Assembly (NCBI RefSeq): GCF_037042905.1
Contig: NC_087250.1
Coordinates: 24,554,001-24,618,000, forward strand
From: Lytechinus pictus
Lineage: Eukaryota
Direction: 5' to 3'
DNA: 64,000 nt
Shown: one piece after another, positions 1 to 46,487 of the stretch
Position numbering within the stretch: the stretch's first letter is position 1
Layout: each line of letters opens with the position of its first letter
Translations under genes and position numbers: made by a program
The notes under the pieces: generated by a model
Told to the model about the DNA's origin: nothing
Database searches by the model: none
What the model saw: the letters and a program-made list of their open reading frames with translations, nothing else

Positions 1-702
1 GAATTTAGTTTGTTTGGTTCATTATTATAAAGTAGACGCCCTCTCCCCCCCCCCCCCCCGCTGTTTTGTCATTACCACTTGGTAGTTGCGTTATGTGCTA
101 TCTACAAACCATTCCTATTTATTGGGGAGGGTGTGGTAGATGGGGTAGGGTGGAACTGGTGGGTCTATTTAAAGATTGATAGCTGAGATGTTGATGTATT
201 TCAGATTTTGTATAATAACATAATTCAATAATGATAACAATAATAGTTACATTTATGTAGCGCTTCATACGTTGGTTTCTAAGCATTTTACATATGTCAT
301 TATTATCACCCTGGTCATAGGATCCACCACTGTTCCACACACAAAGTGCACCATCTCCACTCTCTGTGAGCATCCTGGCCAGGCAACCATTTATCGGTTC
401 ACACATGCCAAGCTAATCGCATTGACGTTCACATCCTATCGCGTACCCATTTAACACCTGGGTCGAGAATTGCAAAGTGTGGATTGTATGTAGCTAGATA
501 GTTCTACTTGTGAAAATTTGAAGTTTCCACCCTTGGTAGACGTAGGTACTGCAATATCAAACAAATGTACAACATAATTAAAGTGAACAGTATTTTTTTT
601 TTCAATGCACATAAACATACAGACATTACAATCATCATTACTGTCAGTATTTTCTTTCACAGAGTTCGTTTATGATCAATCTGAATCTTATGCATCGTTG
701 CC

Positions 703-1389
703 TCACTTGCCACCATCTTCGGTATCATCTGTTTCTCCTTCACTGCTGTCTTCATCCTGGTATTGGAATAATCCCTCAAATTTTGTCTTATGTCTGGCTA
801 CTACACGGCGAATGGCTTTCCACTTCTTCATGCCATTTTCTACTTTCTTCATGATGTCAGAAAGGATTTCGTAATTGGTGTCATCATCTTCAAGGTACAA
901 GCTCTGTCGCAAGAAGTTAGAGTAGTGGTCAAAGAAGATTCGTTTAACAGCCCATAGAACTTTCACATGGGCTTTTTCTTTAGCATCATTATCACTCATA
1001 CCATTGGAGATATACTTTTTGTATTTTTCATTCCTCGACTCCTCAGTTGCTATCATGGCCATTTCTAACCATTCATGGTAAGCCTGGTTATCTTCAAGTT
1101 CTCCTGTCTCGTCCATCTCTGAATTCATTGATTCTTCCTCTCCTCCACTTTCCGAGTCCTCGGATGGTGCATTGCCGTCATGGATAGCCTCCGCAACTCG
1201 GTGCTTTTTAGATGGAGGTTCATACTGAGAATCATCTTCGCTATCCTCTTTTTCGTATTCAGTGTCTTCGTGGTCTTCCATTTTGGGGTGTACAATCTGT
1301 TCGTGCCTCTTGAGATCAAATTTTCGACCATATGATTTATTACACAGTGAACAACTGTAGCGCTTGGACATGAAACTATTCATGTTCAT
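703..1389 (-). CDS. Intronless C2H2 zinc-finger/acidic protein, left copy (Maverick/Polinton-like accessory ORF)
   Basis: CSLCNKSYGRKFDLKRHEQIVH finger, D/E-rich tract, NLS-like PPSKKHR, helical C-terminal domain. First in-frame ATG at 1389. Confidence 0.75.
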   Translation of the reverse strand: MNMNSFMSKRYSCSLCNKSYGRKFDLKRHEQIVHPKMEDHEDTEYEKEDSEDDSQYEPPSKKHRVAEAIHDGNAPSEDSESGGEEESMNSEMDETGELEDNQAYHEWLEMAMIATEESRNEKYKKYISNGMSDNDAKEKAHVKVLWAVKRIFFDHYSNFLRQSLYLEDDDTNYEILSDIMKKVENGMKKWKAIRRVVARHKTKFEGLFQYQDEDSSEGETDDTEDGGK

Positions 1390-1443
1390 TCGTTGAAGTT
1401 CCGTTTGCAAATGACACAGAGCAACTGAATCTTCATACTTGTA

Positions 1444-1675
1444 CACTCTAAATTACAGGGATTTAAAACAAGTCCACATGGACTGTAGTTAGGGACCAAT
1501 CGAATTCCGGATTTAGTTTGAATCCTTAAGATTCATTTTTAAATCTCGAAAGATTTAAATTTAAATCATTTGAGATATAAATTTAAGTCGTTAGGATTAA
1601 AACTAAATTCAGAAATCGATTGGTCCCTAGCTACAGTCCATCTGGACTTATTTTAAATCCCTGTAATTTAGAGTG
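1444..1675. mobile_element. Palindromic MITE (CACTC...GAGTG), TA target duplication
   Basis: Ungapped palindrome centred at 1559/1560 with about 16 mismatches per 120 bp. TA at 1442-1443 and 1676-1677; removing it restores pairing with the right arm. Confidence 0.85.
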
Positions 1676-1903
1676 TACAGATCGCATTGCCGCAAATAAA
1701 CATGGCGTTTACGCCGTAACGCCGTTGACGGCGCTCGGGATGCATTGATACGGCGTAAACGCCGTTTTTATTTGCGGCAATGCGATCTGTACGAGTCTGA
1801 AGATTCAGTTGCTCTTTGACGCCGTAGCAATGCATCCCGAGCGCCGTCAACGGCGTTACGGCGTAAACGCCGCTTTTATTTTTATTTGCGGCAATGCGAT
1901 CTG
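1676..1903. repeat. GC-rich branched hairpin at the palindrome axis, present in two inverted forms
   Basis: Stem tacagatcgcattgccgcaaataaa/tttatttgcggcaatgcgatctgta. Inner segment acgccgttgacggcgctcgggatgcattg (~1719-1747) recurs as its reverse complement (~1828-1856). Confidence 0.9.
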
Positions 1904-1957
1904 TACAAGTATGAAGATTCAGTTGCTCTGTGTCATTTGCAAACGGAACTTCAACGA

Positions 1958-2644
1958 ATGAACATGAATAGTTTCATGTCCAAGCGCTACAGTTGTTCAC
2001 TGTGTAATAAATCATATGGTCGAAAATTTGATCTCAAGAGGCACGAACAGATTGTACACCCCAAAATGGAAGACCACGAAGACACTGAATACGAAAAAGA
2101 GGATAGCGAAGATGATTCTCAGTATGAACCTCCATCTAAAAAGCACCGAGTTGCGGAGGCTATCCATGACGGCAATGCACCATCCGAGGACTCGGAAAGT
2201 GGAGGAGAGGAAGAATCAATGAATTCAGAGATGGACGAGACAGGAGAACTTGAAGATAACCAGGCTTACCATGAATGGTTAGAAATGGCCATGATAGCAA
2301 CTGAGGAGTCGAGGAATGAAAAATACAAAAAGTATATCTCCAATGGTATGAGTGATGATGATGCTAAAGAAAAAGCCCATGTGAAAGTTCTATGGGCTGT
2401 TAAACGAATCTTCTTTGACCACTACTCTAACTTCTTGCGACAGAGCTTGTACCTTGAAGATGATGACACCAATTACGAAATCCTTTCTGACATCATGAAG
2501 AAAGTAGAAAATGGCATGAAGAAGTGGAAAGCCATTCGCCGTGTAGTAGCCAGACATAAGACAAAATTTGAGGGATTATTCCAATACCAGGATGAAGACA
2601 GCAGTGAAGGAGAAACAGATGATACCGAAGATGGTGGCAAGTGA
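1958..2644 (+). CDS. Intronless C2H2 zinc-finger/acidic protein, right copy (Maverick/Polinton-like accessory ORF)
   Basis: Mirror of 703-1389. ATG at 1958 (alternatives 1964, 1976), TGA ends at 2644, TCAGTT Inr-like motif at 1919-1924. Family assignment is from recall, not from a search. Confidence 0.75.
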   Translation: MNMNSFMSKRYSCSLCNKSYGRKFDLKRHEQIVHPKMEDHEDTEYEKEDSEDDSQYEPPSKKHRVAEAIHDGNAPSEDSESGGEEESMNSEMDETGELEDNQAYHEWLEMAMIATEESRNEKYKKYISNGMSDDDAKEKAHVKVLWAVKRIFFDHYSNFLRQSLYLEDDDTNYEILSDIMKKVENGMKKWKAIRRVVARHKTKFEGLFQYQDEDSSEGETDDTEDGGK

Positions 2645-2859
2645 GGCAACGATGCATAAGATTCAGATTGATCATAAACGAACTCTGTGAAAGAAAATAC
2701 TGACAGTAATGATGATTGTAATGTCTGTATGTTTATGTGCATTGAAAAAAAAAATACTGTTCACTTTAATTATGTTGTACATTTGTTTGATATTGCAGTA
2801 CCTACGTCTACCAAGGGTGGAAACTTCAAATTTTCACAAGTAGAACTATCTAGCTACAT

Positions 2860-3095
2860 ACAATCCACACTTTGCAATTCTCGACCCAGGTGTTAAATGG
2901 GTACGCGATAGGATGTGAACGTCAATGCGATTAGCTTGGCATGTGTGAACCGATAAATGGTTGCCTGGCCAGGATGCTCACAGAGAGTGGAGATGGTGCA
3001 CTTTGTGTGTGGAACAGTGGTGGATCCTATGACCAGGGTGATAATAATGACATATGTAAAATGCTTAGAAACCAACGTATGAAGCGCTACATAAA
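2860..3095 (+). mobile_element. 5'-truncated SINE (mirror copy at ~252-487, minus strand)
   Basis: atccacactttgcaattctcgacccaggtg core matches the tRNA-headed element at ~32910-33165. Confidence 0.7.
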
Positions 3096-4158
3096 TGTAA
3101 CTATTATTGTTATCATTATTGAATTATGTTATTATACAAAATCTGAAATACATCAACATCTCAGCTATCAATCTTTAAATAGACCCACCAGTTCCACCCT
3201 ACCCCATCTACCACACCCTCCCCAATAAATAGGAATGGTTTGTAGATAGCACATAACGCAACTACCAAGTGGTAATGACAAAACAGCGGGGGGGGGGGGG
3301 GGAGAGGGCGTCTACTTTATAATAATGAACCAAACAAACTAAATTCAAATCTGAAGTATGAAACAATATGTAGATTATTTTATCGAATAAAATCAAGAAT
3401 AATATACCAGCAATTGAATTGAATCACTAATATAGAACAAGAATAAAAATGAAAAACAGGGAAAAAAACTGGTCTAAAAGTGAAAAGGAATGCATGCGCA
3501 TCATGCCCTTTATCACTGACATATATTCCACTCTAAAATCGTCAAACCAAATGACCAATCAGGTTCTATCTAATAAGGTGGGTGTGTCCAAAGAAATATC
3601 AGAATGTAATTCATTGATCATATTGTATATACTCAGACCTTCACAGACAAATACATGTCTGATTATCCTGCTCAAGGAAACCAAGTGGCTAATCCCCAGA
3701 TCCCCAGGTATATGGCTCAGTGACCCCCCCCCCTTGCTCCATGAATGATTTTAGAACAAAAGAATGTGCTTCCGGATAAAGGAAGACACTGGGAGGATGC
3801 ATCATTAACGAATATCCACATTCCTATTGTTTACAGGATGTCATCGGAATGATGTCTTATTAACGAAGATCCGCTTCCTTATTGTCACCGGAAGTCACAC
3901 TAATTAACCAATTTCCGCTTCCCTATTGTTTACCGGAAGAAGTAATTAACACCTTCAGTAGGGTATATTCTATGCTGCTTACGCCACTGATGAGGAGAAT
4001 TAGTCGATTGCTTCGAGATTGCATTATTCCCAAGAGGTTATCATTAATATTATTGAAGGGTATTCTAACACAACAGTACAGAAACTACAGCTCCCGTTCA
4101 CAGAATATTCTAGTAGGGCCTACTCTGGTAAGAAGTTAAACCAAATTGAACCCCCCCC

Positions 4159-4190
<32 letters not shown>

Positions 4191-4447
4191 CGCTCGTGCT
4201 TTGCGCTCCCATTGATATTACATTATATATTCATGGATTTTTTTTTTCAAGAACACATGAAAAAGTGGTCTTTGGTTTTTTTTAAATGTGATTATAAGAT
4301 AATTCAAAATCCATTTAAGGCACTTTAGTTAGGCTGGCCGGGAGGGAGTGGGCGCCATTTTTCGAAAAGTACACATATGGGCGCCAAAAATCAGGTCAAA
4401 TTTGCCCCCCCCCCTCTCCCTCCCCACGAAATCCTGGATCCGCGCCT

Positions 4448-5402
4448 GGGTTCTATAACAATAACCCAATTAGGGCAATCACCCCCTGACAACTACTTCA
4501 AGGAAAATATTATCCCCATATTTTTACCGGCGGGGACTGATACCCCCCCCCCCGGAAATTTACCCTCCAGATAATTACCCCGGATAATTACCCCTAGTAT
4601 GGAGCCTTGAAAATGCCATTAACGTGACGACATGGCGTGGTACTTTATCTTGCCATGTCTTAATTAATCATTGGCGGCGGAAGGCAAACAAATTTAGGGG
4701 GGTCCACCTGAAATTTTGGGATGGACACAGGTTAAAAAATTGACAAGCAAATCAACCAAAAATTGTAGGAAGGACCACCAATTTTGAAAAAAATTTGACA
4801 AGAAAAACGGTTATAAACCAAAATTAGGGGGACAAAAAGATTTTAGGGGGGTCCACCTCAATTTAGGGGGGACGTAGAAAACAAATTGACAAGCAAAAAA
4901 AAAAGGTTCTCAACTAAAAATCTAGGGGGGACCGTCCCCCACCTCAAATTTAGGAGGAAAGGTCCCCCCCCCCCGCTTCCGCCGCCTAAGTAATTAATAC
5001 GCTTATTATTTTGACATAGCGATATATTCTATCTTGTCAAGTCGATATGTCCACATGGCGAGATATGAAGTGTACAAGCCCCGGCGAGAATCCCGATATA
5101 TCGCTATGTTGACATGTAACTTATTTAAGTCGACTTGGCAAGATAAAATATCTCGCCATGTTGACATATAACTTTTTATAAGTGGACTGACTTGGCAGGA
5201 TAACGTATCGCGCCATTATTTAGTCGACATGGCAAGATAAAGTATCTCGCCATGTCGTCAAGTCGATGGCTCCGTATGGCGTCTAGAGGGTAAATTTCCG
5301 GGGGGGGGGGTAACAGTCCCTGACGATAAAATATGGGGATAATATTTTCCTTGAAGTAGATGTCAGGGGGCGATTGTCCTTTGGGTCATCGTTATAGAAC
5401 CC
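4448..5402. mobile_element. Outer MITE of a three-level nest
   Basis: TIRs gggttctataac...cttcaaggaaaatattatccccatattt and the reverse complement at ~5328-5402. Contains a second element at 4598-5276 (tatggagcc...ggctccgta). Confidence 0.8.
4669..4990. mobile_element. hAT-like MITE with 8-bp TSD
   Basis: Ends cattggcggcggaag / cttccgccgcctaag; taattaat on both flanks (4661-4668, 4991-4998). Confidence 0.8.
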
Positions 5403-5481
5403 CAATGGACTCGTATCATTGGCCTTTTGACCTCTTGATGGCATTGGATCTCACTATATCCTGACCATAATTTTACACACA

Positions 5482-5671
5482 CCGCGGGCTATCGGACCCG
5501 CGGTCTATCGGACCCGCGGACTATCGAACCCGCGGTCTATCGGACCCGCGGTCTATCGGACCCGCGGACTATCGGACCCGCGGTCTATCGGACCCGCGGT
5601 CTATCGGACCCGCGGACTATCGGACCCGCGGTCTATCGGACCCGCGGGCTATCGGACCCGCGGTCTATCGG
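5482..5671. repeat. 16-bp GC-rich minisatellite (ccgcggNctatcggac), about 12 copies
   Basis: Direct tandem units with no spacers; variation is mostly at one position. Confidence 0.95.
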
Positions 5672-5692
5672 GCTGTAACCGCTTACACGTAC

Positions 5693-7028
5693 CGCTTCGT
5701 TTCCAGGAAGGTCGTTATACATCTGAAGATTAACTACAAACTCTTGTCCTCTTTCAATCCTGTCTGGGATGTACAGTCAGTCCGCAAGCCCCTGTGTTAA
5801 TGAGCAAATGAGCAAGATTTATCCAAGTCCTCTCGTGGCTGAATTCATGTCCCTGCAAAATCTCGTGAATTGTGAGACTTTCTTTCTCAAAGAATTTAAC
5901 CACTTTTTTCTTGAGTAATATTGATTATTTTTGTACCATGGGCAAGAGTAAATGTTACTCTTTTATATTGCTCATTTCTTTTGAATGAAATATTTTGATA
6001 AATAAGTGAATTTTTTACCTGAAAAGATGCATCAAACAGAATTTTCTTCCTCTGTTTTCACTTGCAAATTGTGCAACATTTTGTGTTTTAGGCACCAACA
6101 TTATTTATATCATCAGAAAGCTCAAACTCTATACTTTCTTACAATGTCACTCTTGATATGTGGCATCTTTTAGATGGGTCAGCAGCCAGCTTTGTCCATC
6201 AAGATGCAAGACGAGATTTCTGAAATTTCTGAGTAACATAAAATCCAGAGTTCTGATTGGCTGAATACTGTTTTCAAAACAAACAGGCGCGGTTAATTTG
6301 AAGAGATTACCACATGGTGAGTGTGACCTTGCAGAGGCCCAGTGTGGGGAACATAGGAATTTGCGTGGGTGTGCTGTCTCTATGACCAATAAGAGCGCAG
6401 TATTCTTGTTTTTGAGCTGCAAAATGTACTTGGCCTATGAAAAGCTGGCTGCTGACCCATCTAAAATACATCTTCTTATAAAAATTATATCATATTAAAG
6501 CTTAGATCTTCAGCTTTATCATGATCTAAAAATAATTTGTGCCCAAACGGAAATTAAGTGTGAAAACAACAACTGTTGTTGCATGAAAAAAATATTTTGT
6601 TTCATTTTTTAGATCAAAATTTTTTTCCTATATTACAACATCCTTTTAAAAATCCAAACACATGACCTGAAAGAATGATTCTTCTTCTTTACAAAAATAC
6701 CAAAAACATGAAATTTTGTCAATATTTAGAGCAGCAATGGCCGAATAAAAAGAGGTGTTTTGGTTCGCACCAAGCTCATTAACTATGCAAAAACCCTCTA
6801 GTCATGAATATCACTTGGATAAAAGAAGCTACTTTTTCAGGGCTTGCGGACTGACTGTGTATGGAGTACACATAAGTTGCTGTCGGATCACATGTTGTTC
6901 AAGAGGAATCATAATCCACCACTCAGCACAGTAGCTGACGTACAGTTCAAGATGTTTCTTGTAGAGTCTGCAGTATGGTGGTTTCTCTGGTGAGCTGGAT
7001 GATTGCTTCCTTGAAGTTATTGGTAGAT
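5693..7028 (-). pseudogene. ZU5-end/UPA exon split by a DNA transposon
   Basis: Removing 5774-6857 and one TGTA gives ...QQLMCTPY-IPDRIERGQEFVVNLQMYNDLPGNEA|GT in one frame. Confidence 0.85.
5774..6857. mobile_element. Non-autonomous DNA transposon, 18-bp TIR, 4-bp TSD (TGTA)
   Basis: cagtcagtccgcaagccc (5774-5791) and gggcttgcggactgactg (6840-6857); tgta on both flanks. Confidence 0.92.
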
Positions 7029-7259
7029 CTTGTTTTACCAATCCCCAAAATAGAAAAGATCAATAAACATTGAATGAATTATATCAGGACTTTCGAGATC
7101 GTCAAAATGGTCAGACAAGGTTATATAAGAAACAATATCAGTAGACGCGGTAATGGTGTATGATTTGGGGTCCGACCACTTGACCGAAGGCCCTCGAGAC
7201 CGAAGACCCGCGAGACCGATTTTTTTTCCTTCATCAGGTGCCGAGTGGTTTGAGACGCC

Positions 7260-10120
7260 TCGTTGCAGCGGCGTATGCCTGTTATCAAGGGGGGGGGGGG
7301 GGCAGAGCCAAATATTTCCCGGTAACTCCGTCTAGAATTAGTGACATAACTATGATTTCAGTTTAGGGGCGGGAGTGAGCACGGGAAGCGCGCTCCCGGG
7401 ACGGGGGTGCAGTGAGTGGGAGTGTCCGGGGTAGAGACAACGGTAACTAAGTCCAGAAGGATTTCATTTTAGGGGGCGGTAGTGATCACGCGAAGTGGCG
7501 AAAAACTTAATACTGAGCGCGCGAAAGGCGCTCCCTATAACATGTATATTAAAGGTGGAGTTTTCCCCCTCCCACGCAAAGCACGGAAGCTCCGACGTTT
7601 TCTTCGGATTGTTCTTTGTCTGCTCCCGCTCCTTTTACATTCTCTGCCTGTTATCGGGGGGGGGGGGGGGGCGGGGCAAATAATTCCCGGTAACTAAATT
7701 TAGAATCAGTGGCTTTGCTAGGATTTCATTTAAGCATGTTTAAGGGGGCGGTGGTGAGCACGCAAATCGTGCGAAACACTTACTGCGCGCACGAAACGGC
7801 CCTCGATCTAGGGGGGGGGGGGGGAGGTGCAGGGAGGGAGAGTTTCCGCTACTTACAGTGTAAACTTATGTTGCTTAATTTCACTAACACTGCTTTAATA
7901 ACTTTACTCATTAAACGTTTATTTTTGTGGTAATTCTGCTTCATGATCTTGTGCATTTAATGTTTAACAAGAAAACTGGAAATATTATGGAAATACATGC
8001 ACTTGGAACATTGAACCTTCATTATCGGCAATCCTATCGTAGCATTTTTTTCTTATTTAAAAAGAAAATAGGAAGAACAAAAAGGTGAAAGTTCTAAAGA
8101 AAAGAACGTCCATTAATTTGTCACTCAAATATAAGTTTTCCTCCGGGAAGCCTGTCCTCGGGAGAATGGTCCTTCGGGGGAGTTTTCATTGGGGACTTGT
8201 CATGGGGGAGTCTCCCTCCGGAGGAGAAGTCCTTTCGGGGAGTTGTCCAAAACCAGTTTTTTATTGTTGTTGTTACTATACATTTTTGTTATCATGATAT
8301 CAGCAGTAGCATCAGTAGTACAATTAGAAGTCGTATAGTAGTAGTCGGAGTCGTAGTAGTCGTAGTCGTAGTAGTAGTATAGTGATAAACCTAATATTTG
8401 TTTCTATTGTCCTTATTATTCACCATTATTATCGTTATCATCATACGATTATTGATATTTTATTGATATTTTTAATGTATAGGGAGCGTGAAAGAGGAAG
8501 GACATGCACAAGATAGATAGGAAAGAGGAATAGAGAATGCAGATGAAGAAAAAATGGTAGATGAGGTAAATGATAATAACAATAGCCGTAAAATGATAGG
8601 AAAATAAATTAATAGAAGCGCCGTGTTCGCCTAAAGCATAGAGAAAAGACCTAGACAAAAATCACAAAGACAAAAGAAGCGAAATTATTTAGGAATGAGA
8701 TGTTAACATAATTAAAGAGAACAGAGAAGGAGAGAGGAGGGGGGGGGGGGGTCAGGAGGAACGATAGGAAAAATTGGTAAAAGAGCAGTGAGAAAAGTAA
8801 AGAGGAAAAAAAAATTGGCAGAATGTCAAATTTTTTGATGTGCTTTGTGTCTATCAGTGTGTGGGATTAGTGTCTGCGTTTCTTTGCAAATATATTTAGG
8901 ATATTTCTGAAAAACAAATCTTGAAATTTGCAACAGCCCACTTTGGATGCGGCGCCACTGTATTTTGGCTCATCAGTCTAATTGTTGTAACATTTTTTGG
9001 TTTCACCTCGGTTGTGCAGATTTCTTTAAAGACGATGGTATGATTTCGTTAGACGATGAAGTGAGAGAGGGGATGGGGTGTCCGATTTTGTAGTATTATT
9101 AAAAGCATTTTTGCAAACTATCCCCAGTCTAATAATACTCCGGCAGGAGCTGAAATATTATCTAAAAACAATGATATAAAAAAAAAGGAATCTATTAATG
9201 GATAGTTGAATGAACGAATAAATAAATAAATTAACAATTATATTTATAAATTGATTACACCCTCGTAGCAAAACGCCACCCCCAAGAAAAAAGGGGGAAA
9301 TGAGAGTGAGAAAATAAAAAGGTATAGGAGAACGTAAGACGAGCGAGAGCAATCAAGGAATAGTTCAAGGGATTGTCACAGCTTCTCCCTCCATGCACCC
9401 CTGGAACGCGTTTTGCGTGCTCAGTAGGGCCTAAGTGTTCGCCACTAATTTTAGAATTAGTTAACGGGAAATTTTTCGCTGTGCCCCTCCCCATTTCCGG
9501 CAGAAACGTAAGAGCGGATGCAGACAAGTAACGCTTCAAAGAAACGTCGGAGCTTCCGCAATTCGAAATCCCCCCCCCCCCCGTTAACAGGCAGAGAACG
9601 TAAGAACAGCAGCGGGCAAGGAACGATTCGAATAAAACGTCGGAGCTTCCGTGCTTCGCGGGAGGTCGGGGGGGGGGGGAAACTCCCCATATAATATGGA
9701 GCGCCAATTGCGCGCTCATTATTAAGTATTTCGCACACTTCGCGTGCTCACTACAGCCCCCTAAAGTTAAATCCTTGCAAAACAACTGATTCTGGACTTA
9801 GTTACCGGGAATTCCTTTGCTCTGTCCTCACCCCCCCCCCCTCCGATAACAGGCAGAGGACGTATTAAGATGAGCGAGAGCAGATAAAGAACAACTCAAA
9901 GGAACGTCGGACCTTCCGTGCTTCGTGCGGGGGGGGGGGGGGGTACACTCCACTCCCTGCACCCCCCCCCCCACCCCTGGAACCCGCTTCCCGTGCTCAC
10001 TACTGCCCCCTAAACTGAAATCCTAGTTATGTCTCTAATTCTAGATGGAATTACTGGAAAATATTTGGCTCTGCCCCCTCCCCACTCTGATAACAGGCAC
10101 CTGTTACGCCGCTGCAACGA
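7260..10120. mobile_element. Foldback-like element with long modular inverted arms
   Basis: tcgttgcagcggcgta... (7260 to ~7830) is inverted at ~9380-10120. gacgcc lies on both flanks; the interior is non-coding. Confidence 0.75.
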
Positions 10121-10209
10121 GACGCCGATGCAGGGGGGGGGTGCAGGAAAAAAATAAAATCATGTGTATAAAGTGTATGTGCATATTTTCTCATTCTCTA
10201 TGGAATTAC

Positions 10210-10551
10210 CTTTAATTGAGTCCCACATCCGACAAACGATGTCTGGTTTCACCTGCTCTGGATTGATGACAAAGGAACAGTGTGGTATAGTGATCCTAAC
10301 AGGTTGGTTGAAGATCACGGTTTGGGGCTCACACCTGATCCCACAGCAGGCCATTGATTCACTTACTAGGATATCAACACCGGGATTGTCTCTTATGGTG
10401 GTTAGTGTGATCTGACAAGAATCATCCTGGGGAACTGCTCCAGGAGGAATGTACATCGATATCCCATGGTCTTCTAGTTTGATTTCCTGACTGGTATTAC
10501 TTTTTACTTCTGCAGAAACCTCGGCAGAGATGAATGACCTATTAGTGATTT
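10210..10551 (-). CDS. ZU5-domain exon of the ankyrin gene
   Basis: LEDHGISMYIPPGAV...CGIRCEP...FNQPVRITIPHC; ttcag acceptor, GTAAT donor, phase 1-1. Confidence 0.85.
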
Positions 10552-11050
10552 CTGAAGATACAGGAAGTGAACAGTTAGACCAATGGTGTATACAATCCAT
10601 GACAAACGAAATACATTCATATATATATTATGAATGAATTAGAGCTCCACGACCCCGTTGCAGAAAAAGTTGCGATCAAACGCAACTCAAAAAATCTTGC
10701 GCAACTTGATTTCCAGCCAGTGAGGTACCCGTATTCAGGACTTGCGCACGATATTTTGACTCGCCTTTCAACGCAACTCTTTCTGCAACAGGCCCCGGAA
10801 GAGTAACACTTAAAATTACAGCAGTTTACATGGTTCATCTTTATCTTAATAGTACAGTCACCATTAGACTTACCCATGTGTTTGTCATCATCATCAAGTC
10901 ATCAAGTTATTATCATCTTTAATAAATATATGCATAAACTATATATCCTTTATTACTTCGTCTCCATTTAATATAATGCTGGTTGAAAGAAAAGATAAAC
11001 TAGATCCAACGCTAACATGGTGGAGAACCCTTTTTTCAACCAGCGAGATA

Positions 11051-11465
11051 GAGGCTGTTCTCACTACGTTCCTAAAACTAGTTTAGTGGAAACTAGTTTA
11101 ACGCGTAGTGAGAACGGTCGAAGAGGTCTTGGAAGCGATCTTCCAAACCAGTTTGGAAAACCAGCTCGCGATGTAGTTTTCAAGATCGCTTTGCCTCGTT
11201 AAGCTGGTTTTAGCGTAAGTGAGGACACAACCGTTCTTCGGGAAGCGATCTTCGCACATTTTGAGCGCGCTACTCCACACGACAGGTGTAGAATGCCTAT
11301 GCTGCGGTTTCGAATTTCGCTCGAAACGTGTCACCCACTGAGAGCGTTTCCATAGCAACAAGAGCGCTTTACGTGAAGTGATTTTGAAAACCACTTTCGT
11401 GTGATCAAGTGGGAACGCTAGCAAAGCGGTAAACTAGTTTTAGAAAGCGTAATGAGAACGGCCTC
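11051..11465. mobile_element. MITE
   Basis: TIRs gaggctgttctcactacgttcctaaaactagttt / aaactagttttagaaagcgtaatgagaacggcctc. Confidence 0.8.
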
Positions 11466-12794
11466 TATATACTAACTGTTGAACGTCACAAGGACAATCA
11501 TGCCATATGACGAGAGACGGAGAATTCCTCTCTGCAAGCAATTGATTTAACTCACTAATTAACTACCTCCTCGACATCGAACTTTTCTTCTGAACTGTCA
11601 TTGCGATGAACTGACACAACGGAAGTGACAGCATATACATAGCTGTAGGTCTCCCTCAAAGATGATGATTACGACAGTGACAATTAAACGAGATATGGAA
11701 ATAGACCAAGAAGAGAGACAGAAAGATGTACCGTCCAGACGGAAAAAAACAGATGGACGAATTAACAACAATCGCGAAACAACATCACCAACAACAAAGA
11801 CAACACATGGGGAATGTTTCATAAAAGGACTTGACGAACGTTTTATCCGACAAGCCCTGTTTTTCCGACAGTTACCATTGTAGCAGTGCTTCTCAGCCAA
11901 TCAAAATGAAGGAAATTTGTCAGATCTGACAACTTGTCGGACAATAATATTGATGAAACGCTCTCCAAATGGCACGATGGACATCGACAACGGTAGCGAC
12001 GACGACGACGATGAATAGACTGATGTAAACATGGACTTAACAGAGAGACTGCAAACAACTATTATGACTTCGACATGTTCAATAAACCTATAAAGCCAGG
12101 ATTGGATTAAACAGAAGAAAGACAATGACAGATTTATTGACTGTAAGACTGTGTTGAGACAGAGGACAATTTATATTTATATTTCTATTGATGTTTCATG
12201 CATGTCTGTTTAACATATTCCTTTTGCTTCTAAATTTAATTCTAATATTTGGGTGGCTCAGTGGCTCTGGTTTTAGTCAAACTGATTTTTGTACTCTTTT
12301 GTGAAAATGCGTGTACATGGTTTGATAGAAAACAAAAACATATGCTAAATTTATAATTTCACTTTACTTAGATATAACAAGTCGTATGAATTGATATCTT
12401 TTCCAGAATTTTATTAATTGACTTTTGTTATCATATTAGTATAAGAATGTAAAGCTGATAAATGAACCTATGTATATCCGTATGAATTAATTCTGTTGGT
12501 CTCATAGTTCATTTACAACTGGTTTTAGTATTGCTGATTTTTCATCTCATATATATAAGTGTTATAGTTAATGCGAAATTATCAAAAATATTCAGAGGGA
12601 ATATAAATCGAAATGTTGAATGGATGACAAGTGAGAAAAGCGTGAACTCCAATATGGAGAAGGTTTGAATGCATTGATAAAAATAATGCTAACATGCATA
12701 GCTTGAGATAATCATCTGATATGATTTATCTGTTTATGTTTCATTTGAATGACAATTCAGGAAAAAATACATTATGGTATTATCATAGTAGAGA

Positions 12795-12960
12795 GCGAAG
12801 TTGGCTCACTCGGTAAAGTGTCTGCCCGTCCAAAGATCTTGGGTTCGAGTCCAACCCCGGGCAGATGGCTGAAGCCAGTTTTGGTTAAAGAGTACACCGA
12901 TGTAATAGTAGGAACAATGGTCACTGGTGGCAGATAAAACTACCAAGCCTTTTTGGAAGG
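12795..12960 (+). mobile_element. tRNA-derived SINE-like sequence
   Basis: A-box-like tggctcactcgg and B-box ggttcgagtcc; no complete cloverleaf. Confidence 0.5.
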
Positions 12961-13061
12961 ATATCGTTTCCTTATAATTACGCTAATCGCAAGTTTTATG
13001 TGATTGATTATATGTGGCAGTTGGGTTAATAATTGATATGATGTTTAACAAATGTTCTTAC

Positions 13062-13096
13062 CTCTTGTAGACTTTACCTCATCCAATGAAGACAAC
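13062..13096 (-). CDS. 35-bp micro-exon linking the ankyrin and ZU5 regions
   Basis: ttgcag|GTTGTCTTCATTGGATGAGGTAAAGTCTACAAGAG|gtaag; phases 2 and 1 fit both neighbours. Confidence 0.7.
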
Positions 13097-13540
13097 CTGC
13101 AAGTAATCACAAACCACAACCACTCTGTATATACTTTTTTTTATTAGTGTATGCCAGCTTTCCTCATTTGTAATTTTGTTGTAAGGTAGGATGAATGTAA
13201 TCACACGTAAAGGATTTCACCGCAAAATGAAATGAACAAAATAAATGTGTATATCTCATGTGTTTCGAATGTGAAATAAAATGAAAAGTGATTTTTTCTT
13301 CTTATTTACACAACGACATATTCATTTGCACCCTATATGGTGCGGTGTGCACTTCCACCAAAAGAATACAATTCTGCTCCGACTAACTTCACATTAATAA
13401 TTCAGAAATCATCGACAATCATGAGGGTTGGTAATTTCAACCCTACCCTTTTCTTAGTTTGTGAACAACGTGGTCATTATTTTGTCCATAAAACGTTTTC
13501 ATGTAACGCCGTGTGATATAACAAAGGTTGAAACAATCAC

Positions 13541-13698
13541 CTTGACAATATCATCTGCCTGACTAGTTCATCCTTGGCATAGTGGATCGGTAGGTTGCCT
13601 GTCTCGTCCTTTACATCTAGCTTGGCACCATTCTCAATGAGATAAAACACCAACGATTCATTTGGAGATAACCTGCCATTGTAGTATTCGTGGGATAT
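13541..13698 (-). CDS. Terminal ankyrin exon
   Basis: ISHEYYNG...YLIENGAKLDVKDETGNLPIHYAKDELVRQMILS; canonical splice sites. Confidence 0.85.
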
Positions 13699-14211
13699 CT
13701 GAAACAGAGAACAGCTAACTTTCATAACACTTGAAAAGCACTTGCACAACCTGCTTTACATGGGAATTTTTTGTTTTAAAAATCAAATGATTACACTAGC
13801 CAATACGAATTAATTTGCAATATCCCCTACAATCACACAATCGGTTAGCTACATGAATATATTATAATAAGGTTAATATTCTGGGTCGTACGTCTAGACG
13901 CCCGTCGTTGTAATAAAATTAGAAAATGTGTCAAAGCATTTAATTTGTTCCATGGACATACATTTATTAACGATAACAAAGGGAGACTTTTCAGCAGAAT
14001 TATCTATCATTCTATGAGAATTTAATTCAAAGCTACATGGTGAGTTATCTCCTTTGATATCTGGATTTACGACTTATATTTTGATAGATGGATGCCCGAA
14101 ATCATTATGCTACTACGTATTCCAATCATTTATGATGTCTCCCAGAGCACTCATGAGTCCTATGAATATTGCTAACAACTACAGGAAACTCTTCCCCTTT
14201 AAATGGATCAC

Positions 14212-14394
14212 CTTTTTAAGTGTATCTGTGTTTTGAACTGTCATGTTGTTCCTGTGGCATAATTCGATGGCTTTATGAAGACAGGTCTGGCCGTCAGACG
14301 ACTGCGCATTGAGGTCACATCCACTGGATATCAACTTTTCGATGATAGCTGTATGGCCATGTATTATAGCAAGATGGATAGGTGTTGAATTGTC
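14212..14394 (-). CDS. Ankyrin exon
   Basis: DNSTPIHLAIIHGHTAIIEKLISSGCDLNAQSSDGQTCLHKA...; phase 0-0, canonical sites. Confidence 0.87.
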
Positions 14395-14823
14395 CTGGGT
14401 TGAAAGACATATAATCTCCGTATCAAGCAAAATATGTATAGATATATTTTTTAATTCTCGGGAAATACTTTTCACATCTTACTCCCTAAAGCCGCGACAT
14501 TGGATAGGCTTTAACATTGCGTTGAATGTGGATTTACAGTGCTCCTATTTTCAGTTTCCATGGCTCTTCTGATAATTTTAGGGGCTAAATAATCGTTCTG
14601 AGCCCCTGTGTAATTTGTATCTGCTACTTATCAAAATTAACATCTCTGTTTCAATGATATGGTGGATAAGCAATAATCTCCAAAATAATTGTAATGATTT
14701 GTACTGTACTTAAAAAATAGCGCCGTCCTTCGGTTATCGAATATGTACATTACAAATAGTCCTAAAATAAAACCGACAATTAAAGGAAATTAATGTACAG
14801 TTCATTCCAAGAAAATTACATAC

Positions 14824-17325
14824 CTTGGTATTAAACTTGTCTCGTCCTGCCTTATTCAGATCAGCTCCCTCACTGATCAGAAACTCGGTGGCATCAAGAT
14901 GACCATGAATAGCCGCAATGTGTAATGCAGTCGAACCAATATGATCTCCTTTATTCACCTCAGCTCCTTCGCCAATCAGGTATTTAGTAATATCAATATG
15001 ACCACTCTGTACAGCGGTGTGTAATACAGTCCGCCCATCATTATCTCCTGTATTCACCTCAGCTCCTTTACTAATCAGATATTTAGTGATGTCAAGATGA
15101 CCACTCTGTACAGCATTGTGTATTAGAGTCCAACCATCTTCTCTTTCTGTGCTTCCTTCGTTTCCTTGACCAATGAAGTAAGTAATGACATCAAGATGGC
15201 CCTTCTCTGCAGCAGTGTGACATACAATATCTACGTCAGCGCCTTTACTGATCAGATATTTGGCGATGTCATAGTGAAGACTTCTAGTAGCAATGTGTAA
15301 TGCAGTCAAGCCCCAATTATCTCTCTTATTCGCCTCAGCTCCTTTACTAATGCGGTATTTAAGGATGTCAAGATGGCCACCATCAGCAACAATGTGTAGT
15401 GCAGTCCAACCATCATTATCTTTTTGATTAACATCTGCATCATGACTGATCAGATATTTTATGAGGTCAGTATGACCGTTCCCAGTAGCACTGTGTAATG
15501 CAGTCCGGCCATTTTTATCCTTCTTGTTGACCTCAGCTCCTTGGTTGATAAGATATTTGATGACGCTTATATCGCCATTCTCGGCACTAGAGTCAATAGC
15601 ACTGTGTAATGCAGTCCTACCATCATTATCCTCCATTCTGACCTCAGCTCTTTGACTGATCAGATATTTTGTGAGGTCAGTATGACCGTTCCAAGTAGCA
15701 CTGTGTAATGCAGTCCTGCCATTGTTATCCTTCTTGTTGATCTCAGCTCCTTGTTTGATAAGATATTTGGTGACGCTAATATGACCATTGTTGGCAGCAA
15801 TGTGTAATGCAGTCGAACCACAATTATCTTTCTTATTCACCTCAACTCCATGCCCAATCGAGTATTCAGTTTTATCAAGATGACCATTCTGCTCAGCGCT
15901 GTATAATAGAGCCTCGCCATCTTCTGTTGTTGTGTTCACTTCAGCTTCTTCAGTAATGACGTCAATTAGACATTTTAAGGCATCTAGATGTCCATTTTTA
16001 GCTACAAAGTGTAGTGCTGTCCAGCCACCATTGTCTCTTTTATTCACCTCAGCTCCTTGACGAATCAGATATTCAGTGATACGAAGTTGACCATTTTCTA
16101 CAGCACTGTGTAATAGAGTCCAACCATCTTCTCTTGCTGAGTTCACTTTGGTTCCTTTACTAATGAAGTAACCAATGACATCAAGATGGCCCTTCTCTGC
16201 AGCAGTGTGACATACAGTATCAACTTCGGCTCCTTTTTTGATCAGATAGATGATTCCGTCGGTTTTTCTTGATCCCCAAAACAAACTTCGATATGAACGA
16301 TACGAACGATATGAACGATATGAAAGATATGAACGATATGAACGATTTGGCATGTATGTTTGATAGCGGAATACAGCACTGTGTAATGCAGTCATACCAT
16401 TTTTATCCTCCTTATTAACATCAGCTCCTTGGTCGATCAGATACTCGATGACATCAATGTGTTGATCAACCCGCTCATACATGTCAAAAAAGGATGCTCT
16501 ATCACCATGATTTATACTTACAGCACTGTGTAATGCAGTCTCCCCATTTTTATCTTCCTTATTGACCTCAGCTTCTTTACTGATCAGATATTTGGTGATG
16601 TGAAAATGGCCATTCCAAGCGGCAATGTGCAATGCAGTCCTACCATCATTATTCTCCTTATTGACCACAGCTCCTTGACTGATCAGATATTGTACTACGT
16701 CAATATGATCATTCTTACATGTAGCAGCATTGTGTAATGCAGTACAACCACCTTTATTCTCCTTATTGACTTCAGCTCCTTGACTGATCAGATGTATGGC
16801 GACGTAAAAATGGCCTTTCATAGCAGCCTTGTGTAATGCAGTCTCCCCATTTTTATCCTTCTTATTGACCTCAGCTCCTTGACTGATCAGATATACGGTG
16901 ATGTCAATATGACCATTCCAAGCAGCATTGTGTAATGCAGTACTACCATCGTTATTCTGCTTATTGACCTCAGTGCCCTGGCTGATTAGATATTTAGTGA
17001 TGTCAGTATGGCCATACTCAGCAGCAATGGAAAATGCAGTGCCACCAGCTTTATCCTTTTTATTGACCTCAGCTCCTTCACTGATTAGATATTCGGTGAC
17101 GCCAATATGGCCATTCCTTGCAGCATTGTGTAATGCAGTCTTACCATCATTATTCTCCCTATTGACCTCGGCTCCTTTACTGATTAGATATTCGGTGATG
17201 TTAAAATGGCCATTCCCTGCAGCCTTGTGTAATGCAGTCCTACCACAATCATCTCCTTTATTTAACTTCTCTCCCCGACTGATTTGATATTTGACATCTT
17301 CAAGAAAATTATTCGCTGCTGCATC
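14824..17325 (-). CDS. Large exon with more than 20 tandem ankyrin repeats
   Basis: Repeated G.TALH.AA.NGH.DITKYLISQGAEVN. The frame stays open 504 nt upstream of the tracked ATG (16821); donor aag|GTATGT at 14823. Confidence 0.93.
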
Positions 17326-20860: not shown

Positions 20861-22520
20861 ACCATGGTCACATTTGCTCTACGGCGGCCGTAGATACCTG
20901 AATTCGAGATGTTTCTGCGGCAGCCGCAGGGTCGACGTACGGCGGATTCCTATTATTTACAGGCCGTAGGGGTGGCCGTAGAAAAATAGCGCGGAGTTAT
21001 ACAATTTTTTTCATTTCTACGCCCGCCGTAGAAATTAGACTAGCCGTAGCAATGGCGTAGAACGGTGCACGGTCACCGTACGTCGAGCGTACGGTGGCCG
21101 TGCAGCTGCCCTGGTGTCTATATTACAACTATATTTTGCAGCCCTCAAAATTATTGCACCTTCAGTGGAGTGGGTTTGTAGGATTTTCTCTTACTCAGTA
21201 ATCTAGATTGTATACAGAGGTGGGCGCTAATGCAGTTTCGCTCTGATTGGTCAAAAAGACGGCTGTATTTCAGCTTTGAACTCGATGTCGTTGTTCGAAT
21301 CCTCGGACATATATCACTTCGCGGATCGCTTGGATTCGCCGTGCGCCGTAATATTGATATGGACTGAAGTTATGCGACCAAAAGATTCGCCTGCAGCATG
21401 CTGGCAGTTTGTTCGCCACATGTTCGCATGATTTGGTTGCTAACTTCAGTCCATATCAACATTACGGCGCACGGCGAATCCAAGCGATCCGCGAAGTGAT
21501 GTCTGAGGATTCGAACAACGACATCGAGATCAAAGCTGAAATACAGCCGTTCCCGATCGCGATATTTGGAAAAGAGGTGGGTATATTGACCTCGAAATTT
21601 ATTTTTGCTTGAGCCCAAATTATTTTTATATCATGATAATGCTAAATATGTATGCTTTGAAATGATATATGTTTCAAAATAAGAATTGGTTTAATCGGGT
21701 CAAGATCACACTTTTCATTTGCCAAGTACATAAAGCAGCTTGAAAACAAGAATACTGCACTCTGATTGGTCAAAAAGACCACACAATGGCAAATTCCAAC
21801 GGTTCCAGTGCCTGGGTTCGTGGGAAGTAAACACTTCCCTTGTGGTAATCTCCTCAAATACCCCGCGCCTGTTGTTCTTTGAACCTTATCCAGCCAATCA
21901 GAACTCTGGATTTCATGCAAGTATAAATTTCAGAAATCTCGTCTTGTACCTTGGTGGGAAAAGTGTGATCTTGACCCGATTAAAAGGTGCCGCATATCAA
22001 GAGTGGCATTGTGAGAAAGTACAGATGTTCAGCTTTATGGTGATATAGATATAATTGAGGCTCAAAATAAAAAGTTTTGCACAATTTGCAAAAGAAAACA
22101 GAGGAAGAAAATTCAGTTTTTAGGCACATTTTCAGGCCAGAAATTTACTTATTTAACAAAATATTGTATACAAAGTAAATGACCAATATGAAAGAGTAAC
22201 TTTTACTCTATCTGATCGTGTAATAATATTTCATTTAACTTGAGGTTAAAACAGGTAAATTCTTAGAGAAAGAAAATCTCACGAATCACGAGATTTTGCA
22301 AGGAGGAGGATTCAGCCACGAGATGATTTGGATGAATCTGGCCTTTTTGCTCATTAGCATAGGGACCTGCGGTCTGACTGGATTGCAGCCCGTATAGTTG
22401 AGGAGCAGCGGCAGGCCCGACAGCAGAGAAGATGTTGCGACGTGTCACGCTCGGCCACTGCGACAACCTGATGCAGGAGCTGATCATGCGTGAATCAAGG
22501 GGTGATTTTAAAAACTTTTT
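20861..22520 (+). mobile_element. Rearranged PIF/Harbinger-like remnant
   Basis: Begins ccatggtcacatttg followed by (ct)acggc/gccgtag repeats. 22381-22520 encodes fragments IAARIVEEQRQARQQRR and NLMQELIMRESRGDFKNFF, resembling a Harbinger transposase N-terminus. Confidence 0.45.
21600..22380 (-). mobile_element. Diverged partial copy of the 5774-6857 transposon family
   Basis: The reverse complement of 22255-22380 (cagtcagaccgcaggtccctatgctaatgagc...) aligns by eye to 5774-5900, and similarity continues inward. Confidence 0.8.
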
Positions 22521-35519: not shown

Positions 35520-35823
35520 TTAGACTGTTTTTTGGTCAAAGATAATTTCAGCTTCATGTCTTAACCCAGCGGCATCTAGGGCAAGTTTGAGTTTCTCAAC
35601 CTGCTCACTGGGTCGGACACACCGTCTCCAGTCCATTAGCATTTCTATAAGAGCCGATCTTGAGACACTGCGGGACGAGGAGTCAGTTCTGACCAGGTAT
35701 TTCTTCACTGATGAGTAAGAGAAACCAAGTTTGTAGCCCAGTTCCCGAGCATCCTTAATCTCACATACCAAATCGGACAACACCTCTAGCATGTAGTCTG
35801 ATGCAAATCTCTGTCTGTCTCGC
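35520..35823 (-). CDS. Last coding exon: C-terminal death domain
   Basis: LEVLSDLV...ARELGYKLGFSYSSVKKY...ALIEMLMDWRR...VEKLKLALDAAGLRHEAE; ttgcag acceptor; TAA at 35520-35522. Confidence 0.85.
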
Positions 35824-36141
35824 CTGCAAGATAGGAAGTGATGACGAAACATTTTAAAAGTTAAGGAAAAATAAAGATTGCCTAACTGCATGAGGGTTAA
35901 TCCAGTTTAATTATACTTCCAATTTGGCCAGCTGATAATTAGAAATAGTTCCAACATTCTCAATTCATGGTTTTAAAATGAGTCAAGATTGGCTGTGGTT
36001 ATTGTCACTACCCGAACACTGAGATTAGTTTGAAAAGAGTTTGAGAAGATTTGAATCTAAATCATTAACCACCGTTGATCTCAATTTTTATTGAAGCCCT
36101 GTTATGATTAGAAATATAAGAATGATGTATTGTATACGTAC

Positions 36142-40794: not shown

Positions 40795-43700
40795 TATAAT
40801 CACTCGCGTCGCGTGCGGGTTCGTAATCACTCGCGTTTTGAATTTTTTGCGATTTTTTTTTTATTTCGGTGCGATTTTTTTTTAACGGTGTCTTCAATGG
40901 GACAGACATGCAGGGAAAATAAAATAAAATTGAAATTCGAGTTTCGAGTTTCGTTTTAAGCCGGCAATTAAGTGCCTTAAAATAAAATGTACTCGACTAC
41001 TGTTTTAACATAACTAACAAGCAAATCAGCCATGTGGCTCAACTAACTTAGAATAGATCCGGACTTCTACTGTGTCTTATACGAGGACTCCGAGTCGGAA
41101 CATGCCATATCTGCCACATCGATATTACATCGTATCATTCCCATATGCGGACATGCCTGCATGCAATGGCCCCAAGGCGGCCGGACCCGGCCGCGGTCGG
41201 ACACGACGTGCATCGGTAGCATGGAGCAAGCTAACGTGAGTCGAGCTGAGTTAGATCCCACGTTATATATGAGGCGCCGATTGTACCAATATTATATAGA
41301 ACAATTATTTGTTACATAATCATTATTCATTAAATAATAACTATTATTTACATATAATTTACATTTTGTTTGAAAATAATTACTATTATATAAAATAACA
41401 TTTCTAATTATATATAATTCCAAGTAATACTTCATTACTTGTAAATAATAATAGTTCGACATTCCATTATTTATAAATAATGATTATTTGTTTTTCATTA
41501 TCTATAAATAATAATTTTTGTATTTCATTATTTATAAATAATGACACTTCATACTTCATTATTTATGAATAATTGCAATTCGTTTTTTGTATTATTTATA
41601 AATAAGTTTGTCGAGTTTTCTATTATTTGTAAATGATAATTATATATTAACAATGCCAGTGCACATTTCTTTATTCATAAATAATTTGTTGAGTTTCCCA
41701 TTATTTATAAATAATGAAAATTCATCGTGTTTCATTATTTATAATAAGATTATTCGAATAAGCGAAGAAGATAGTTTGCGAGAGAAGACAGGTCTTCTCA
41801 AAAAACCAATTATTGGCAAGCCATACACGGCCCGCGAAAACAAAGCGCGCCCCTGCGATTCCGCGGGAATTCTCCAAGGACACGCCCCCAGCAACATGTC
41901 TGTGATTGGCTGGGCATGTCATGGATAGCGCCGTTACACAGCGCCCTTGGTGACAGCCAGGCAACGGCAACGGGGGCACAGCCTCTACGCTAAAAAGAAC
42001 CAATGAAATGCATTGAAAGAATTCAGGGACGTGCGCAATACGCGACAGATTTGGAAGCACATGTTCATTCTCAACTAAGCTCTGGGGGATGCAAGACGTT
42101 AATTTGCCCTCCCTCCCGCCCATTTAATAATGGTTGTGAGTGGTTGGTTATAATATTGTCAGGGTCGGAGGGTATTGTTTCTGCCTCCAAAAATGTGGTA
42201 CACATGTTATGAAAAAAGATTGGATGATATAATACATGGTTGTTAATAATTCTGTCCTGATTTTTGTTTATACTCAAATCTGTCAAAAGCGATTGTGCTA
42301 ATTAATCTAAATGTGGTAATAGCGAATTTTAAAGACGGGGCTCGAGATTGCTCAATGAGCCTGTTTAAGTGTAAGTTGTGCCGGTTACAGTTGATTGAAA
42401 TAACCTTATATTTTGGTTGGTTATACTGTTGATAGATAACATGGATTTATTTTGGTTGGTTGGCTGGGCATGTGTTTGGATAGAATTGCATTGGTTGCAT
42501 AGGCTTGTATTAGTTGACTGAATGGGCTTGATTGGCTTGTTGGTCGGATAGACTTGCATTGGTTGGTTGGGCGATATGTTTGGTTGTTTATTATCATAAG
42601 CCAGGATCCACGCTCTACAAGCAAGGCTTTTAGTGGATCCCCTCATTTCCAAACAAGTTCTTGTTAATACAATTGCCCAAATTTTCATAATTTGTCTATA
42701 GTTGATTTGTAATTACAATTGTTGTGTATTTGTGTTTATGCATTTAGTGCATATTTGATTTGTACCGTGATTTTTTATGATGTACATGACGGAAGTTCAA
42801 AATGAACTCGTTTTTATTCGGTTGGATGTGCTTGCGCTGGTTGGGTGGATGGGCTTGCTATGATTGGTTGGTTGGTTATAATGATCATAGGGATTCACGC
42901 TCTCCAAGTAGGTATTTTAGTGGATCCCCTCATTTCCAACCAAGCTATTAATACTTTTGTACAAATTTTAAAATTTTGTCTGTAGTGGACCGGCAATTAC
43001 AATTTATATGTATTTGCAAATTGTTTATGCGCACTATGATGCATATTTAATTCGTGTTTGTATTTGGTAATGATGTACAAGATGAACTGAAATTTGTTTG
43101 GTGGCTTTATATGGTTGGTTGGCTGGGCTTGTTCTGGTTGACTACAATTGCACAAATTTTCATAATTTGCAGTTGATTTGGAATTATAATTGATGTGTAT
43201 TTGTGTTAATGCATTTGATGCATATTGATTGGTACCGTAATTTTTTGTGATGTACATGACGGAAGTTCAAAAGGAACTTGTTTTGTTTGGTTGGATGGGC
43301 TAACATTGGTTGGATGTTTGGGCTTGTTATGATTAGTTGATTGGTTATGATCATATCGATCCACGCTCTATCAGCAGATCCTTTAGAAAGATCCCCTCAG
43401 TTTCAACCAAGCTGATAATACTATTGTACAAATGTTGAATTTGTGTCCGTAGTTGACTTGTAATTACAATTGATATGTATTGTCATTGTTTATGCATCAT
43501 CATTTATAATTGATTTATGTTTGTATGTGGTAATGATGTACAAGGTGAACTTAAACTCGTTTGGCTAGTTAGATTGGCTTTACATGGTTGGATGGTTGGA
43601 TAGGCTTGTTATGGTTGGTTGGTCGGGCTTGTTATGGTTGGTTGGTCGGGCTTGATATGGTTGGTTGGATGGGCTTGTTTTGGCTGGTAGGATGGGCTTG

Positions 43701-45973: not shown

Positions 45974-46142
45974 CTGAGGATGCAATAAAGTAATAACAAA
46001 AGTCTTAGACCCATATTGCCATCTCCGCTGGCTATATTTTCAGAAAATGTAAATGTAATGCAATTGCTGTATTTGTAATGCGTCTAAATAGGAAATGACA
46101 TGTAGAAAGAAAAAGACAGAGACAATATAATCATATATTTAC

Positions 46143-46487
46143 CTGGTTCTAATTTGGCATAAAGTTTAATACGCGCCCCATCTTTATCTATTTTGCATCC
46201 GTCTGAAGTGATGCAGTAAGGAAGGGAAATAGAAGCAGGTCTGAGGAGTTCTTGAAAGAAGGAACATTGGATGACGGGTGTTATGAGAACCTCTCCATTT
46301 CCCAAAGGGATTTTCGATAAACTTCGTCTCGAAACGGTGAGAGTAACAACTGAACCCATTCCTTTGGGGATCGCTCCCGGAGGGAAGGATATTCTGATGT
46401 TAGGTCCATCTAGCTTGAGTTCTCCGCCATCATGATCAACCAACCCATGCGAAAGAGAATCCAGAAAGCCTGGATGATGTTCCATTG
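46143..46487 (-). CDS. ZU5-domain exon
   Basis: GLVDHDGGELKL...ISFPPGAIP...EVLITPVIQC...RPASISLPYC; phase 1-1. Confidence 0.88.

Follow-up and report, generated by a model that had tools for sequence, protein, structure and literature searches.

A 64,000-bp stretch of the Lytechinus pictus genome (contig NC_087250.1, positions 24,554,001 to 24,618,000; hereafter the window) opens with a near-perfect palindrome, and the locus raises the question of how two copies of one gene came to stand head to head, what that gene is and what has kept the copies alike. We place at roughly one half the probability that it is a fold-back pair of a gene derived from the tail of a Maverick ATPase, with arms kept alike by conversion and a zinc finger predicted to read the shared centre. 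A preliminary description had pointed to a giant palindrome with two intact, intronless gene copies, and self-alignment bears this out: the outer arms (1-1445 and, as far as it can be compared, 1902-3346) are complementary at 1,444 of 1,445 positions (BLAST E value 0.0, far beyond chance). Because the left arm runs off the start of the window, 1445 bp is a minimum arm size. Each arm holds one intronless open reading frame (ORF) of 228 codons, the two pointing outwards, from an ATG at 1389 to 703 on the minus strand and from an ATG at 1958 to 2644 on the plus strand. The one mismatch between the arms (990/2357) exchanges a single residue, N versus D. The window is free of N letters, no tRNA gene was found in 1-8000, and Tandem Repeats Finder made no entry within 1-4163. 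A palindrome alone is an ordinary kind of rearrangement.

The product of the ORF consists of a single C2H2 finger at residues 11-34 (Pfam zf-C2H2, E value 2.5e-4, below the curated cut-off), a disordered acidic linker and a five-helix domain at about residues 100-210, modelled with a predicted local distance difference score mostly above 90. Beyond the finger we found no match in Pfam, the Atlas or structures: the Atlas returned generic finger clusters only and nothing for the helical domain, fold searches gave only zinc-finger rows with E values above 0.5, viral models gave nothing below an E value of 0.09, and a fold search with the helical domain gave a best Z score of 6.0, which is uninformative. 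Relatives were found by sequence. A direct search yielded 21 among 135 candidates, and a profile search of 1.84 billion representatives added dozens more over the helical domain. A protein named as Lytechinus pictus is 95% identical over 104 residues and frameshifted beyond them. Neither a stand-alone relative nor an ATPase bearing the domain was found in viral contigs, and the one bacterial match (L004) was rejected as a chance match of 24 residues. Another relative, P0127, joins the finger and the first half of the helical domain to ubiquitin-like domains, either as a real fusion or as a gene-calling chimera.

The identity of the helical domain emerged from the protein P0194, in which the C-terminal half of an A32-type ATPase is followed by a C2HC finger and the same helical domain. 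A search with P0194 returned 46 proteins, and the profile of the stand-alone domain scored at least 40 bits in 12 of the 45 that were new, always at the C-terminus. HHalign matched the stand-alone alignment to the tailed ATPases with a probability of 99.7% (E value 4.7e-27, 166 columns), which ties the gene by homology to a Maverick core protein, and predicted models of a stand-alone protein and a tailed ATPase contain the same five helices. Pox_A32 scored above its cut-off in three of the four tailed ATPases scanned against Pfam, and all 11 ATPase heads tested share 38-48% identity with that of a complete Maverick (L005). Pfam recognises the integrase-chromo, ATPase and C5 protease proteins of L005; its polymerase and capsid were assigned by inspection, with no Pfam match, and its own ATPase has no tail. 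The tailed ATPases fall in clusters of 17-113 members, many truncated and mostly on large contigs, as expected of mobile elements. Taken together, these homologies support the view that the protein is the stand-alone form of the zinc finger and helical tail of A32-type packaging ATPases. The helical domain itself is, judged by its relatives, an undescribed domain that forms the tail of invertebrate Maverick-type packaging ATPases. The preliminary description had likened the ORF to accessory genes of invertebrate Mavericks: the link to Mavericks holds in the form of a tail homologous to that of ATPases with Maverick-like heads, but not as an accessory ORF inside a Maverick, as no locus with both was obtained.

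How such a protein could have arisen is suggested by intermediate architectures. Of the 39 rows that have no ATPase in a tree built from 63 chosen domain sequences, 36 lie in one branch (96/91), together with one long-branch fused row; the remaining three fall among the fused forms. Four tailed ATPases carry an additional N-terminal C2H2 finger with arginine at positions -1 and +6, like the stand-alone finger, whereas the inner C2HC finger of tailed ATPases has serine or threonine at -1. Because of these four proteins, and because P0126 has both fingers and the tail with no ATPase between them, loss of the ATPase from the middle of the protein is the likely origin. The family would then be an ATPase tail living without its ATPase, derived from a C2H2-ATPase-C2HC-tail protein and now probably multi-copy in urchins. 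Literature searches, which covered listings and passages (also of 10.1101/2023.08.22.554363, 10.1101/2024.01.15.575659, PMC8502044, PMC6431247, PMC7614390), brought up no account of a Maverick ATPase tail, of its stand-alone form or of gene-bearing snap-back Mavericks in urchins.

Between the outer arms lie two hairpins, an AT-rich one at 1444-1675 and a GC-rich centre; the preliminary description did not assign the roles of axis and MITE to one or the other. The AT-rich hairpin is a miniature inverted-repeat transposable element (MITE) inserted into the left arm, directly upstream of the left copy's TATA-like element. It is 232 bp long, palindromic (86% self-complementary) and non-coding, with perfect terminal inverted repeats of 25 bp and a duplicated TA at 1442-1443 and 1676-1677. 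Its copy number is high: in two other DNA runs, depth over it was 28,000-51,000, compared with 200-1,300 over 1808-2759, where the GC-rich centre and the ORF lie, a ratio to the ORF of 41-245, and the whole element occurs with different flanks in a contig of another run. This copy has at least two letters that nearly all other copies lack. Its CAC...GTG ends with a 2-bp duplication are, we presume, CMC/EnSpm-like; a literature search on its superfamily found nothing. Matches of plant microRNA hairpins in Rfam all fell below gathering scores and reflect palindromy only.

On either side of the MITE the arms stay in register, continuing as the inner arms 1680-1756 (77 bp, a GC-rich upstream motif cluster) and 1819-1901 (repeated GCGT-core motifs), which differ by two substitutions, one 6-bp gap and the junction base. 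The true axis is a 62-nt spacer at 1757-1818, closed by an 8-bp inverted repeat in which 1749-1756 is the exact reverse complement of 1819-1826. The spacer together with 1749-1756 is a truncated direct copy of a module at 1857-1932 upstream of the right ORF. All of 1788-2021 is spanned by one contig of an independent run, so the GC-rich DNA belongs to the gene itself as its upstream region; we rejected the reading of this centre as the MITE, as depth is at the level of the ORF and the sequence is joined to the ORF in another run. At 1908-1938 on the plus strand, a TATA-like element followed by TCAGT/TCATT initiator-like words forms a putative core promoter, and the same layout recurs upstream of the homologues L002 and L003.

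This centre would fit a fold-back origin. Yeast fold-back duplications have inverted repeats of 3-15 bp at their centre (PMC10622511), and the 8-bp inverted repeat central to the near-perfect arms of the palindrome falls within this range. In the sequence of events that we favour, a break left of 1749 would have let the 3' end pair with 1819-1826 across the 62-nt loop, whereupon the gene would have been copied backwards; a MITE would later have entered the left arm at a TA site, the insertion being evident and its timing conjectural; and the resulting 234-bp heterology would have put the inner 77 bp out of reach of conversion, leaving the inner arms, but not the outer ones, free to diverge. 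The preliminary description had also favoured a fold-back, placed in the chromosome on the ground that a host-type short interspersed element (SINE) is mirrored in both arms. The 8-bp repeat fits the fold-back part of that proposal. A SINE-like fragment is indeed present at 2862-2919 on the plus strand and in mirror image at 428-485 on the minus strand, at very high copy (its depth exceeds 100,000 and either side has loose ends), but it does not separate duplication of the chromosome from duplication of an element: a 944-bp ORF contig from another DNA run (X4) passes from the ORF into the same SINE junction, so that the SINE is part of the repeated unit and cannot date the duplication.

Two comparisons argue for conversion between the arms. 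With the central copy as outgroup, the inner-arm changes resolve into two substitutions on the left and a 6-bp insertion on the right, besides the differing junction base, giving three events in 77 bp for the inner arms and one in 1445 for the outer arms (Fisher p 5e-4). In addition, over 1951-2888 both arms differ from the X4 contig, which may be a paralogue, at 26 of 938 sites and 12 gap letters, and from each other at one. The arms are thus far more alike than either is to the X4 copy, as in a conversion-maintained palindrome, and because many of the X4 letters at the differing sites are shared with a further run (X3), the changes private to the window copy are mirrored in both arms. Among the ten ORF differences that are listed (with 275 further rows), four are synonymous and six non-synonymous, on 123 and 561 sites respectively, too few to claim selection. 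With the private letters of the MITE copy added, the simplest account is an older duplication and continuing conversion between the arms that is unable to pass the MITE, much as in human Y palindromes (PMC3723533).

The finger may be what connects the gene to the centre of the palindrome. Across 30 stand-alone fingers, position -1 is arginine in 29 and position +6 in all 30, and the variable position, +3, is aspartate in 20, asparagine in nine and serine in one. Aspartate at +3 favours C and asparagine favours A. The middle base of a triplet depends chiefly on this position (PMC4005693). Upstream of L002, whose finger has aspartate, a single strand carries 12 GCGT[ACT]A sites, where shuffled sequences have 1.4 (none of 500 as high), and there is one site of the GAGT type. 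The region upstream of L003, a broken copy with asparagine, has 11 GAGT[ACT]A sites against 1.0 in shuffles (none of 500 as high) and no GCGT site. The window, with aspartate, has six GCGT[ACT]A sites, partly mirror copies, against 1.2 (1 of 500) and none of the GAGT type. The +3 residue therefore tracks the upstream motif in three loci, aspartate with GCGT and asparagine with GAGT; a fourth locus, L001, has an R/N/R finger and only 94 bp upstream and was left out. The head-to-head layout leaves one motif cluster between both copies, and a finger reading GCG-core sites there would be predicted to exert feedback control over both. We give about even odds to the prediction that the product is a nuclear protein binding the clustered sites before its own gene. 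Foldseek returned 1yui and 2adr as weak rows (E value above 1), which we take to be single-finger DNA-binding proteins such as GAGA factor.

Several observations weigh against the fold-back pair maintained by conversion and read by its own finger. One-to-one codes for fingers vary with context (PMC4330361), and neither GCG nor GCGT by itself shows enrichment in the window (GCGT nine against 6.5). The motif pattern was chosen post hoc on three loci, one of them the broken copy L003, with sites in the window that are partly mirror copies. In one raw RNA run of unspecified tissue, a quarter of which was read, no reads fall over 1808-2759; no RNA run is among the listed runs that share words with 1400-3600. 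The contrast between inner and outer arms depends on counting, with p rising to 0.007 if the inner differences are taken as two events and to 0.10 if they are taken as one, and conversion is deduced from sequence comparison. The neighbourhoods of homologues comprise three stand-alone loci of 1.5-1.6 kb only and none for tailed ATPases, the Maverick context of which is presumed. No listed contig spans both arms, and none of the 15 joints listed (with 220 further ones) lies in the centre; the outer end of the palindrome is beyond the window. Finally, a plain fold-back does not explain the apparent multi-copy state of the unit.

That multi-copy state bears on the alternative that survives best, in which the palindrome would be a non-autonomous Maverick element of about 4.7-4.9 kb, its two arms serving as terminal inverted repeats, moved in trans by full-length Mavericks. 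We regard this as possible though rather unlikely, and hold the accompanying mechanism, whereby strand-displacement replication folds a single strand back on itself and the arms stay identical, as equally tentative. The cargo is Maverick-derived, and depth suggests several to tens of near-identical copies: the unbranched 944-bp ORF contig has a depth of 680 in X4, against 22-50 for six other listed contigs (about 18 times the median), and the ORF contig in X3 has 207, against 15-80 (about six times). Depth is no copy number, which counts against the mobile element, and for this reason only a multi-copy family is suggested. The unit continues rightwards through 3347-3983 at a depth of the ORF's order up to about 3980, with a dip to 23 in X4 at 3168-3303, and it ends near degenerate 44-55-bp repeats with CCGGAAG words (3777-3940) and a jump in depth at 3984-4119, so that 4112-4126 is an unproven candidate for its right end. 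Vertebrate Mavericks have terminal repeats of up to 1,447 bp, which fits arms of this size, and bear the end motifs (AGT)2 and (AG)3 (PMC8097293). The candidate end has neither canonical motif, and in 3346-8000 no such end stands at a plausible place except one inside another element; the motifs are, however, those of vertebrate elements. Three pairs of relatives lie on equal-sized contigs (P0011/P0040, P0042/P0052 and P0010/P0270) and two named proteins have consecutive accession numbers (XP_011664919 and XP_011664920), a pairing compatible with either orientation. Moreover, no mirror occurs in the 381 bp preceding L002 or the 455 bp preceding L003, and hairpin repair of a whole element should have evened out the inner 77 bp as well. 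An autonomous Maverick did not appear: tblastn of 11 L005 ORFs against the window gave a best E value of 0.088, in an unrelated reverse transcriptase, and a weak match of the last L005 ORF at 3887-4012 (E value 0.24, with a stop) was set aside. A wider version, a family of small snap-back Maverick satellites in marine invertebrates that have no viral enzymes, carry the detached ATPase tail in both arms and have a finger co-evolving with their own central sites, is improbable. Were it true, the satellite would be under the control of its own protein, which could also mark it for packaging by full-length Mavericks or act as a competitor of their packaging machinery. An endogenous DNA virus of animals would then have a defective-interfering or host-restriction system set against it.

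Long reads and amplification are known to yield near-perfect palindromes as artefacts, and one could have come from a chimeric read folded on itself, from two haplotypes or paralogues joined in inverted orientation, or from short-read polishing that made the arms identical. We consider such an artefact very unlikely. No run contains half or more of the words of 1400-3600, and the missing arm-spanning contig points the same way. The MITE in one arm only, which the preliminary description had taken as an argument against a simple folded read, does serve as one: a folded read cannot give one side alone a 232-bp insertion flanked by duplicated TA, as well as two substitutions and a 6-bp gap. The window has no N, and the join of centre to ORF is present in an independent run. 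Bases anchored to the unique MITE junction should escape polishing, yet the first 455 bp have no difference, and because these 455 bases adjoin the junction polishing fits the identity of the arms less well; the chance of no difference is 0.014 for 150 bp at 2.8% divergence.

Of comparably slight probability is a very recent fold-back with no conversion, in which the inner differences would stem from an older imperfect inverted repeat of the promoter and the MITE would have inserted soon afterwards. A young event would agree with the single mismatch in 1445 bp, and upstream modules are reiterated in the homologues as well. The MITE, however, separates the inner from the outer arm, the arm keeping its register on either side of it, and its two or more private letters in 232 bp exceed the divergence of the outer arms (p 0.016), a rare donor copy being a possible source. 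A captured replication junction of a hairpin-ended element, also raised in the preliminary description, is unsupported, as promoter-like modules make up the centre, and the ends of Mavericks are protein-primed and bear terminal repeats rather than hairpins (PMC8097293).

If the fold-back pair maintained by conversion is the correct reading, the locus would hold an internal clock for how palindromes are maintained in the germ line of an invertebrate, its outer arms being converted, its inner arms not, and a MITE dividing the two. The ATPase tail lives on as a separate conserved gene family, and a finger and site that apparently change together would be a rare natural case of regulator-target co-evolution inside a mobile element, one that is directly testable.

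Further features lie elsewhere in the window. A high-copy element of about 950 bp at 4448-5402 is bounded by long composite terminal inverted repeats and has other repeats nested inside, and a GC-rich 16-bp tandem repeat follows at 5482-5671 (11.9 copies, 93% matches). An inverted pair of a roughly 780-bp repeat (5774-6557 and 21598-22380) is 76% alike, and an old foldback-type element has modular inverted arms about 72-82% alike at 7250-7830 and 9440-10130, around 1.6 kb of other DNA. Inverted arms of 600 bp, 93% alike, bound about 4.1 kb at 40797-41395 and 44322-44902. An apparently intact long interspersed element occupies 47941-51859 on the minus strand, its endonuclease-reverse transcriptase frame having 943 codons and being preceded by a frame that resembles ORF1, and a 1162-bp unit is repeated in tandem over 59795-64000 (99.9% identity, 3.6 copies or more), the array running off the window. 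Parts of an ankyrin-ZU5 gene on the minus strand (10160-17325, 46084-46497, 35520-35906 and 57412-57798) include an ankyrin exon of 863 codons, another ZU5 exon and exons that resemble death domains, and the palindrome may lie in or just behind a gene of this type.

Among known systems, foldback transposons such as Drosophila FB and sea urchin TU consist of two long inverted arms with little between them. The locus shares the long inverted arms and small centre, but its arms have no tandem sub-repeats (1-4163) and each holds an intact gene, and we rejected a classical foldback transposon on this ground. Single-finger proteins of the GAGA factor type resemble the predicted product in having one C2H2 finger with arginine at -1 and +6, a basic patch after it and clustered short sites; here there is no BTB domain, and DNA binding is a prediction. 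Fold-back inverted duplications at short inverted repeats (PMC10622511) have the same long near-perfect arms, short inverted repeat and small spacer, from which the locus departs in its 62-nt loop, its place in an animal germ line, the later MITE insertion and the diverged inner arms. With Mavericks/Polintons (PMC8097293, PMC8502044) it shares an intronless ORF, a helical domain and finger homologous to the tail of Maverick-type ATPases, and an apparent multi-copy state; it differs in that the 64-kb window has no polymerase, integrase, capsid, protease or ATPase head and the tail is a separate gene. The human Y palindrome P6 (PMC3723533) differs in scale, with arms of 100 kb where those of the locus measure kilobases and its spacer less than 0.5 kb, and in the present case conversion is inferred and the cargo is of transposon-virus origin; the two are alike in arms more than 99.9% identical, in greater divergence outside the converted part and in a gene duplicated in both arms.

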